NCBI RefSeq assembly: GCF_048403405.1
Contig: NZ_CP183129.1
Reading direction: 5' to 3' (one strand)
DNA: 64,000 nucleotides
From: Escherichia coli
GTDB taxonomy: Bacteria; Pseudomonadota; Gammaproteobacteria; Enterobacterales; Enterobacteriaceae
In this document: one piece after another, positions 1 through 3,000 of the stretch
How the letters are laid out: each line of letters starts with the position of its first letter
Position numbering within the stretch: position 1 is the first letter of the stretch
Program-made: the position numbers

Positions 1-3000
1 GGCCGGGAAAGATGCCCCAACACAAACGGCAGCAGCAGTTGCAGCATAATTTTACCGACCTGCTCAAGGCTGCCTCCCGCACCGTGAACATTCATCACCA
101 GACCAACCAGCAATGGTGAAAGGAAAATCCCCAACAGGCTGGATGCTGACGCAGAACAAACCGCTGCCGCAACGTTACCGCCCGCCATTGACGTGAAGGC
201 GATTGCAGACTGCACGGTAGCGGGGAGAATGCACAAGTAGAGAAAACCGGAGTAGAGCATCGGGTCGACATCAACCGGTTTCCACCAGGCAAACAGCATG
301 CCCAGAATCGGAAACAGCACGAAGGTGCTGCACATTACCCACAAATGCAGTCGCCAGTGCCCACCGCCAGCAATAATCGCCTCACGCGACAACTTCGCGC
401 CGTGCATAAAAAACAGCAGGGCAATCGCTGCGGTGGTCAGATTTTCAAAGAAGGGGACGAAATCGCCTCTGGCCGGAAAGAAAGAGGCCAGCAACACCAC
501 CGTGATCAGGGTTAAGGTGAAAGGATCGAGGATACGAAAAAGTTTCATAAAGACTCCAGATGATCGATGGTTCTATTGTGCTTCTTCCAGTTTGAGAAAT
601 AAAATTGATTTATTGCATCCATTCATGAAGAAAACAGATGAATTATTCTTTAAAACAATTAAAGGTTTTCGTCACAGTAGCGCAGGAGAAAAGTTTTAGT
701 CGTGCAGGAGAGCGTATCGGCCTGAGCCAGTCGGCAGTGAGTCACAGTGTGAAGGAGCTGGAATATCATACTGGTGTTCGCCTGCTGGACAGAACCACGC
801 GTGAAGTGGTGCTTACAGATGCAGGGCAGCAGTTGGCTTTGCGTCTTGAGCGACTGCTGGATGAACTGAACAGCACGTTGCGCGATACCGGGCGTATGGG
901 GCAACAACTGAGCGGAAAAGTTCGGGTCGCTGCCAGCCAGACCATTTCCGCGCATCTTATTCCGCAATGCATTGCTGAAAGCCATCGCCGCTATCCAGAT
1001 ATTCAGTTTGTCCTGCACGATCGTCCGCAGCAGTGGGTGATGGAAAGTATTCGTCAGGGAGATGTCGACTTTGGCATCGTCATCGATCCAGGCCCAGTGG
1101 GCGATCTGCAATGTGAAGCGATTCTTTCCGAGCCTTTCTTTCTGCTTTGCCATCGCGATAGCGCTTTGGCCGTGGAAGATTATGTACCCTGGCAGGCATT
1201 ACAGGGAGCGAAATTGGTGTTGCAGGATTACGCGTCAGGCAGCCGACCGCTGATTGACGCAGCGCTGGCGCGCAATGGTATTCAGGCGAATATTGTGCAG
1301 GAGATTGGACATCCGGCGACGCTGTTCCCGATGGTAGCCGCAGGCATCGGCATTAGTATTCTTCCCGCACTGGCGCTGCCGTTACCTGAAGGTAGCCCGC
1401 TGGTGGTAAAGCGCATTACGCCGGTGGTGGAACGCCAGTTGATGCTGGTGCGCAGGAAGAACCGTTCACTTTCCACCGCCGCACAAGCGTTATGGGACGT
1501 GGTACGAGGCCAGGGCCGTGCGCTAATGGCTGGGCGGGAAGGGGAGCCGCTGTATCAGATATAGATATCGATCTGAGTCGTTTTTTCAACAGGATTTGGA
1601 AGGGATGCATTCAAAGACAAACGCTGCTCTTTCTCCTGCGCCTTTTCTGCCTGCTGTCTTTGCAACTGCGCCAGTTGTGTTTCCAGTAGGGTGATTTGCT
1701 GCTGAATCAATTCGGCCTGTTTTTGCTTGTCTTCAGCACTGCCGCTAGTGTCTGCAATCTCTTTAATTTGTTGAGTGAGTTTGATGATTTGCTGACTTAT
1801 CCGCGCAATTTGTGAAGCAACATCGCTACCTTCTGATGCCCTGTTACTACTCTGTGTTTGTATGGAAGGAATTGAAGTTGGAGAGATAGTGGCCATTGTT
1901 CAGTCCTCGTCACTGTACGAGGTAATATCGGCAGAAGAACAAGGAACTTGAGAAGAAAAATCAATCTTACAAACCGCATATAGCAAAAAAGCGCCTTTAG
2001 GGCGCTTTTTTACATTGGTGGGTCGTGCAGGATTCGAACCTGCGACCAATTGATTAAAAGTCAACTGCTCTACCAACTGAGCTAACGACCCGAAGTGGTG
2101 GGTGATGACGGGATCGAACCGCCGACCCCCTCCTTGTAAGGGAGGTGCTCTCCCAGCTGAGCTAATCACCCACTTCGGTACTTCACATTTTTACAAGAAA
2201 TTTAGCTGGCGAGAAAGTGGTGGGTGATGACGGGATCGAACCGCCGACCCCCTCCTTGTAAGGGAGGTGCTCTCCCAGCTGAGCTAATCACCCACTTCTC
2301 AATTTCTTGCTACACGGCGGAGACTACATAAAGTAGTTGGTGGGTGATGACGGGATCGAACCGCCGACCCCCTCCTTGTAAGGGAGGTGCTCTCCCAGCT
2401 GAGCTAATCACCCCCGCTGTGTGGAGTCGCATTATAGGGAGAGTTCAAAATGAGTCAACGCATTTTCTAAAGAAATTGTTCGTTCGTCGTAAATTTAAGC
2501 AAGATGATCGCAAAACAGACCGTGTTGCGCAATTTGTCAACGAAAACAATAATGCGTAAGGTTGCAACCCGAACTACATTGAGGAATCAGGCGGGAGTGA
2601 TAGAATATCGCCCACTCAATTTTTCCAGGATTTGCCGGTTGTCGGCATCTTTCTAAACGTAAGGCCATTTCATGAAAATCAAAACTCGCTTCGCGCCAAG
2701 CCCAACAGGCTATCTGCACGTTGGCGGCGCGCGTACTGCTCTTTACTCCTGGCTTTTTGCACGTAACCACGGCGGTGAGTTCGTGCTGCGTATTGAAGAC
2801 ACCGATCTTGAGCGTTCCACGCCGGAAGCTATCGAAGCCATTATGGATGGCATGAACTGGCTGAGCCTGGAGTGGGATGAAGGTCCGTACTTCCAGACCA
2901 AACGTTTTGATCGCTACAACGCGGTGATCGATCAGATGCTGGAAGAGGGCACAGCTTATAAATGCTATTGCTCTAAAGAGCGCCTGGAAGCGCTGCGCGA

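Follow-up and report, generated by a model that had tools for sequence, protein, structure and literature searches.

The window, a 64-kb stretch of Escherichia coli DNA, carries within its first 4.1 kb the 5′ part of yfeH (1–547, minus strand), the LysR-family regulator gene yfeR (638–1564, plus strand; taken from the ORF list, matching PF00126 and PF03466, and annotated as yfeR in matching genomes), an FlxA-family gene of 113 codons (1555–1896, minus strand; ORF call and PF14282 match), a tRNA operon on the minus strand and gltX (2672–4087, plus strand). The tRNA operon is preceded by a near-consensus sigma-70 promoter, TTGACT-16-TATAAT (2458–2431, minus strand; 11/12 matches in a promoter scan), and contains three tRNA-Val(UAC) genes, valU, valX and valY (2096–2413), and, as its final gene, lysV for tRNA-Lys(UUU) (2016–2091), all four assigned with ARAGORN and lysV also with the Rfam tRNA model at 79.2 bits. 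It closes with an intrinsic terminator (1983–2013, minus strand; RNA fold −19.1 kcal/mol, z=−4.9) whose A-tract and U-tract suggest that it could potentially act in both directions. An Rfam scan of positions 1–6500 returned these four tRNAs only, and the RtT element is absent from the window.

The stop codon of yfeR and lysV are 451 bp apart, and the last 10 bp of yfeR (1555–1564) are shared with the FlxA-like gene on the opposite strand, whose product contains 20 Gln among its 113 residues; the original prediction, which placed a 113-aa Q-rich ORF in a gap of about 450 bp with a 10-bp opposite-strand overlap, thus described the layout correctly. The ATG of this gene lies 7 nt downstream of a Shine-Dalgarno sequence, GAGGA (1904–1908, minus strand), and a predicted sigma-28 (FliA) promoter lies further upstream (1924–1951, minus strand). 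Gene and promoter together make up a variable cassette of 396 bp (1566–1961), defined by blastn against K-12 and by junction alignments. The only plus-strand candidate for a yfeR terminator (1701–1716) folds no better than shuffled sequences (z=−0.5), and no terminator candidate was found on the minus strand 3′ of the FlxA-like stop codon. With neither convergent gene having a convincing intrinsic terminator in the overlap, transcription of the FlxA-like gene probably carries on into the 3′ part of yfeR in antisense orientation.

The FlxA-like gene and its product

A profile search assigned the ORF to Pfam PF14282, 'FlxA-like protein', at 55.7 bits (cutoff 26.3, E=5.9e-15, profile positions 4–82 of 101), the family that had been proposed for it from the sequence, and BLASTP against FlxA of K-12 gave E=3e-13 with 45% identity over 74 aa. 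The two proteins end in IDIYI and IDIYV respectively, both conforming to the family motif IDIY[IV]. The gene is already annotated: RefSeq labels it 'FlxA-like family protein', and in O157:H7 Sakai it is ECs_3279, named 'flxA'. A literature search for ECs3279, Z3670 and 'FlxA-like' found nothing relevant. The family is small, an exhaustive HMMER search yielding 89 clusters at 50% identity; this search replaced a word-indexed homologue search, which gave only eight matches with this low-complexity sequence.

The protein has an S/T/Q-rich disordered N-terminus, a two-helix hairpin (residues 23–49 and 54–97) and the conserved C-terminal IDIYI. In the AlphaFold2 model (pLDDT 68.9 overall) the core reaches 84–90 and the ends are disordered, and an alignment of 33 family members agrees with a coiled-coil helical core in proteins of ~100–120 aa, so that the product is modelled as a small coiled coil built on a helical hairpin. 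A fold search with this model retrieved generic helical hairpins only, none at E<=0.001, and is therefore silent on function. Our best guess is a cytoplasmic, non-essential protein that assists the late flagellar programme as an accessory or adaptor.

Selection on the ORF was gauged from its orthologues, which gave dN/dS of 0.13–0.17 for E. coli versus P. faecalis, 0.10 between two Pseudocitrobacter sequences and 0.04 within Kluyvera. Given this low dN/dS, the good Shine-Dalgarno sequence and the FlxA family match, the ORF is, as judged from sequence, a real and translatable gene under purifying selection. Its neighbours in the window (yfeH, yfeR, the tRNA operon and gltX) are core genes rather than prophage genes, and tblastn of the protein against 50,697 phage records gave no match. 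Two matches labelled 'plasmid' proved to be mislabelled chromosomes.

Two alternative cassettes between yfeR and the tRNA operon

In K-12 MG1655 the same slot reads yfeR-yfeN-xapA-xapB-(DUF1427)-xapR-RtT-lysV, in line with the gene order that the original prediction had given. Alignment of the window to K-12 with blastn matched positions 1–1565 and 1962–4141 and left 1566–1961 without a K-12 counterpart, the corresponding K-12 segment being 4,390 bp long as against 396 bp here. The left breakpoint (1565/1566) falls 1 nt past the yfeR stop codon and the right one (1961/1962) about 20 bp before the tRNA-operon terminator. As had been claimed, xapRBA-yfeN are missing: blastn and tblastn across the whole 64-kb window detected no remnant of xap or yfeN, as DNA or protein, other than LysR paralogy to yfeR and dsdC. 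Conversely, tblastn at word size 2 for FlxA-like remnants in the xap loci of K-12 and Citrobacter gave nothing below E=0.09. The difference is not the simple indel envisaged at the outset: one cassette has taken the place of another.

Nor is it 'strain-specific', as had been supposed. Of 5,426 complete E. coli genomes, 1,306 (about 24%) share the arrangement seen in the window, BL21(DE3), W and O157:H7 Sakai among them, and 4,066 have the xap cassette, scored as present when at least 80% of the xap segment was found. Since these two sets total 5,372 of the 5,426 genomes, the data fit two common, mutually exclusive alleles. The E. coli FlxA-like alleles differ from each other by ~3–4%, and the xap cassette falls into two haplogroups within the species. 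Presence or absence of xap genes in E. coli is already on record, with xapB and xapR varying between phylogroups in a pan-genome survey (PMC9602453). One genome, E. coli HH97, appeared to combine fragments of FlxA and of xapB and was set aside as most likely an assembly artefact, given its long homopolymer runs and fragments of 69–84% identity.

Comparison of BL21 and K-12, which both belong to phylogroup A and carry different alleles, is informative on how the cassettes exchange. Their left flanks show four differences in 3,166 sites, three lying no more than 157 bp from the junction, and their right flanks two in 3,126 sites, one of them 9 bp from the aligned start in the tRNA-operon terminator. 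Because the flanks are nearly identical up to the junctions, the comparison points to alleles swapped by homologous recombination on short tracts through conserved flanking sequence. A tRNA-linked integration hotspot, the setting first suggested, finds no counterpart in the sequence. Neither the 396-bp cassette nor the K-12 xap cassette encodes an integrase, no att-like direct repeats flank the junctions or the xap cassette, and no tRNA 3′ end is duplicated, the sole repeat being an unrelated 61-nt duplication of RtT and terminator that lies on one side only, so that the integrase and flanking att sites of a tRNA-associated integrative element or genomic island are both lacking.

A predicted sigma-28 promoter

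The putative promoter of the FlxA-like gene reads TCAAGTTC-N11-GCCGATAT, with its −35 element at 1951–1944 and its −10 element at 1932–1925, and ends 27 nt 5′ of the ATG; it agrees with the pattern of class 3 sigma-28 promoters (−35 TAAAGTTT, N11, −10 GCCGATAA) and lies at a suitable distance upstream. For scoring we took the 25 strongest FliA ChIP-seq sites in Table 2 of Fitzgerald et al. (PMC4183435) and derived a weight matrix from them. At 18.2 bits the promoter ranked top among the 128,000 window positions (per-position p = 3.4e-7), the second best scoring 12.5, and it falls within the range of the ChIP-validated training sites themselves (8.1–29.0 bits). A consensus search allowing three mismatches would, on its own, be expected to give 0.63 chance matches per window. 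The motif is much like two validated sites, those of modA and motA, and the variant −10 element ACCGATAT found in BL21 and 1916D18 also occurs at the validated ycgR and fliD sites. No sigma-70-like promoter was detected in a scan of the minus strand upstream of the ORF.

Moreover, the motif is conserved beyond E. coli. Across 13 of 13 loci that share this synteny in other taxa, TCAAG and TGCCGATA do not vary and the spacer always measures 11 nt, while the sequence of that spacer and the remaining intergenic DNA have diverged. Counting all family loci inspected, the motif lies 23–37 nt 5′ of the ATG in 17 of 17, orthologous promoters among these not being statistically independent. These 17 include two members found elsewhere for which it was the best upstream match, a plasmid-borne one beside traI and a chromosomal one from outside the enterobacteria (20.2 and 21.6 bits). 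A few orthologues score lower, Scandinavium reaching 9.7 bits and K. georgiana 12.3. The paralogue in K-12 provides an experimental precedent, a fliA deletion lowering flxA expression from 280 to 2 (PMC4183435). Motif score, conservation and this FliA-dependent paralogue together lead us to predict that the FlxA-like gene belongs to the late flagellar (FliA) regulon.

We also considered a leader hairpin (CCUCGU/ACGAGG) that would occlude the Shine-Dalgarno sequence, and rejected it as unproven and without support across genera. It folded better than shuffled sequences in E. coli (9/500) and in Pseudocitrobacter MAG L005 (12/500) and not in P. faecalis (82/500), Kluyvera, Enterobacter, Scandinavium, Pluralibacter or the Pantoea-type contig. 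No consensus structure emerged from RNAalifold, and transcription may start downstream of the 5′ arm.

Ancestry of the locus, competing accounts and known systems

One genome per species was scanned for FlxA-like orthologues, and the locus was then approached, without bias, through YfeR orthologues. The order gltX-valUXY-lysV-FlxA-like-yfeR-yfeH-ypeB-ligA recurs in Pseudocitrobacter (84–88% aa identity), Kluyvera (57–63%) and Pluralibacter (59%). Enterobacter hormaechei and Scandinavium goeteborgense have an FlxA-like gene of 113–114 codons with the identical 10-bp yfeR overlap, and a Pantoea-type contig (so called after the 90% cluster of its FlxA-family member) has a member of 36% protein identity between tRNAs and yfeR-yfeH-ypeB-ligA-zipA. 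Citrobacter freundii has yfeR-xapA-xapB-xapR-lysV, with neither yfeN nor the FlxA-like gene. Between E. coli and P. faecalis, dS of the FlxA-like gene (0.61) is close to that of its flanks (0.71 for yfeR and 0.82 for gltX), and between K-12 and C. freundii dS is saturated for the xap genes and likewise for the flanks. Horizontal transfer of xapR and xapA, several times and together, has been reported before (PMC2395238). The FlxA-like gene thus holds this very site, overlapping yfeR in the same way, in six enterobacterial genera besides Escherichia. On the simplest reading of these sequences it was there first and the xap cassette came later, which would make K-12 the derived state and reverse the direction of change originally assumed; this polarity is drawn from the comparison of E. 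coli with these six genera and Citrobacter. One observation points to further movement: in Pseudocitrobacter MAG L005 the cassette is 94–96% identical to that of E. coli (dS 0.10) between flanks of 85–90% identity, so that the FlxA-like cassette may cross genus boundaries, with re-acquisition by E. coli possible, or this MAG may be chimeric.

Taken together, these data suggest the following account, which we consider likely as a whole on the strength of sequence comparison and of analogy with K-12 flxA. The 113-aa ORF would represent the FlxA family's ancestral chromosomal copy in Enterobacterales, residing in a conserved slot between the valU–lysV tRNA operon and yfeR. RNA polymerase with FliA (sigma-28) would transcribe it from the promoter ~27 nt 5′ of its start codon, and its product would appear together with those of the late (class 3) flagellar and chemotaxis genes; for the paralogue in K-12, flxA of the Qin prophage, this has been found by experiment. 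In Citrobacter and in about 75% of E. coli, the FlxA-like cassette would have given way to a horizontally acquired xanthosine-utilisation (xap) cassette, and strains would exchange the two by homologous recombination in the conserved flanks, at the 3′ end of yfeR and at the tRNA-operon terminator.

Three other explanations were weighed against this one. That a recent, strain-specific deletion of xapRBA-yfeN at a tRNA integration hotspot left behind a fortuitous or prophage-derived ORF would fit the adjoining tRNA operon, the carriage of K-12 flxA by a prophage and the difference in gene order from K-12 that had suggested it. We regard it as almost certainly wrong nonetheless, since the 396 bp are unique sequence missing from K-12 and hence no product of deletion, the arrangement is found in 24% of genomes and in synteny in six other genera, and the searches for xap remnants, att repeats, an integrase and phage matches at this locus all came back empty. 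It is less remote, though still unlikely, that the ancestor of Escherichia had fixed xap and that the FlxA-like allele was later re-imported by homologous recombination from a relative resembling Pseudocitrobacter or Kluyvera. The cassette of MAG L005, closer to that of E. coli than its flanks are, would be expected from such an import, the presence of xap at the same locus in Citrobacter would fit an old insertion in the Escherichia/Citrobacter/Salmonella group, and BL21 and K-12 illustrate that the two cassettes are indeed swapped on short tracts. Against this, the ~3–4% difference among E. coli FlxA-like alleles is typical of species-wide core diversity, and cassette and flanks are alike in their dS to P. 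faecalis; the MAG may be chimeric, any exchange with it could have run either way, and with dS saturated for xap and flanks alike between K-12 and C. freundii, independent xap acquisitions are equally possible.

The remaining alternative concerns expression rather than ancestry: the sigma-28-like motif could be non-functional and the ORF transcribed either from a sigma-70 or sigma-S promoter or by polymerase reading through from the tRNA operon. Many FliA ChIP sites in K-12 are indeed accompanied by no detectable change in expression (PMC4183435), and the consensus match taken alone is of the kind expected by chance at the rate given above. Read-through would nevertheless have to pass a strong terminator (−19.1 kcal/mol) between lysV and the ORF, no sigma-70-like site was found upstream on its strand, the promoter scores far above the window background, its motif, 11-nt spacer and distance to the ATG have been kept while the surrounding sequence diverged, and the paralogue in K-12 is strictly FliA-dependent; we therefore hold this possibility to be quite improbable. 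Transcription by sigma-28 of an ancestral gene, displaced in many strains by xap, thus remains our preferred reading.

With the gene already annotated and the variation in xap known, what is added here is modest: the ancestral locus and the conserved sigma-28 promoter. These two points nonetheless correct the direction of the event, with K-12 derived and the FlxA-like gene a conserved occupant, and predict a new member of the FliA regulon that is invisible to regulon maps based on K-12 and whose promoter signature holds family-wide; the flagellar regulon was defined in K-12, which is without the FlxA copy at lysV–yfeR. Because strains of the FlxA type (BL21, W, O157:H7) have no xapABR at this locus, they should differ from xap carriers in xanthosine and nicotinamide-riboside metabolism. 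A more far-reaching synthesis, which we offer as speculation that is unlikely to hold, would have the FlxA family as a universally sigma-28-controlled accessory module of flagellated Proteobacteria, with the ancestral enterobacterial copy at lysV–yfeR and only a prophage paralogue kept in K-12, and with an S/T-rich N-terminus compatible with flagellar type III export. If this were true, FliA-driven antisense transcription into yfeR would link the motility programme to the YfeR/YfeH system, and the choice between FlxA-like and xanthosine cassettes would amount to a real physiological trade-off.

Several known systems bear comparison with the locus. The type III export hairpins FliJ, YscO and CdsO are two-helix antiparallel coiled coils of similar size, and CdsO was among the top Foldseek matches, although this match is non-significant (E=0.38) and without sequence similarity, any helical hairpin matching such folds, and we take it as a lead only. 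The K-12 xapABR cassette, together with yfeN, occupies the identical slot from the yfeR stop codon to the tRNA-operon terminator, but its 4.4 kb are unrelated in content, encoding a nucleoside phosphorylase, a permease, a LysR activator and a Tsx-like porin. Comparable in regulation is the non-flagellar part of the K-12 FliA regulon (modA, ynjH, ves and yjcZ), where, as here, a sigma-28 promoter precedes a gene without a flagellar structural role; the modA site, TCAACTTCCTGCTTTTCCTGCCGATATT, is nearly identical to the window motif, and these four were validated by ChIP-seq and RNA-seq, whereas the window promoter is predicted from sequence and conservation. The closest counterpart is FlxA of K-12 itself (b1566, Qin prophage), which has been shown experimentally to depend on FliA and plays no evident part in flagellar synthesis or in motility (PMC4183435). 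The window gene differs from it in being chromosomal, in its locus conserved across genera, in its convergent overlap with yfeR and in its diverged N-terminal and linker regions. Both, however, encode proteins of about 110 aa with the same PF14282 domain, 45% identical over the helical core, and both have a sigma-28 promoter, predicted in the window gene, 22–27 nt 5′ of the ATG and a very short leader.

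Allelic variation of the FlxA-like gene and the xap cassette

Compared with its BL21 counterpart, the FlxA-like gene of O157:H7 Sakai shows only nonsynonymous differences (dN 0.015, dS 0), among them a change of the conserved C-terminus from IDIYI to IGIYI, and the annotation of that strain treats yfeR as a pseudogene (locus L020, 1570-2828); these sequence features suggest that constraint is relaxed in the Sakai lineage. In strain 1916D18 (locus L003, 4582-6236), the FlxA-like gene is split by IS1203, of the IS3 family, and is therefore dispensable, at least in that strain. The yfeR-lysV interval of HH97 (locus L019, 5644-6860) combines pieces of the FlxA-like gene with pieces of xapB, at 69-84% identity, and long A-homopolymer runs; this interval is probably an assembly artefact, due either to noise in the reads or to a mixed sample.

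Outside E. coli, the FlxA-like cassette in a Pseudocitrobacter metagenome-assembled genome (MAG; locus L005, 640-1100) has 94-96% nucleotide identity to that of E. coli (dS 0.10), whereas the adjoining yfeR and yfeH are only 85-90% identical, a mismatch that reflects either cassette exchange between genera or a chimeric MAG contig. The tRNA array on this contig, Lys-Val-Lys-Lys-Lys, is itself unusual.

The xap cassette (4,390 bp, 8167-12556 of the K-12 locus L001) falls across E. coli genomes into two deeply diverged haplogroups, one with at least 99% identity to K-12 (2,434 genomes) and the other with 90-95% (1,642 genomes). The split between them exceeds the 2.0-2.3% by which the flanking genes yfeR and gltX of the window differ from K-12 at the nucleotide level.

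A repeat polymorphism downstream of lysV

The stretch downstream of lysV (window 1962-2015; 12557-12736 of the K-12 locus; 3120-3245 of another compared locus, L004) varies in an RtT-like repeat of ~156-170 bp, consisting of a duplicated terminator and tRNA 3' fragment, which the window lacks. Besides K-12, its carriers include P. faecalis, several Kluyvera and some FlxA-type E. coli (SW4848, EcPF16). Its presence or absence is a second polymorphism, independent of the FlxA-like/xap swap.

Insertion elements and other features of the window

The window is identical to strain TUM14771 over 1-6170 (100%) and nearly so over the next 43.8 kb (99.98%), the sole large difference being a 1,326-bp IS110-family element (6171-7496; transposase at 6237-7241 with PF01548 and PF02371) that splits yfeD. 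Between gltX and yfeD lies IS609 (4340-5846), of the IS200/IS605 family, with a tnpA broken by either a truncation or an internal stop codon (95-aa ORF, 4343-4630, PF01797) and an intact tnpB (4638-5846, 402 aa) with OrfB_IS605 and Cas12f-like TNB domains; IS609 likewise lies directly 3' of gltX in Sakai. Further along, the segment 45881-49347 holds dsdX (45881-47218, minus strand), dsdC (47430-48383, plus strand) and an ipuB-like tyrosine invertase gene (48778-49347, minus strand). The intragenic FliA ChIP-seq site of K-12 evgS (TCAACTTCAACCACAATGGGTCGATATC) is intact at 38329-38356 on the minus strand, where it is the eighth-best match in the window to the FliA weight matrix.
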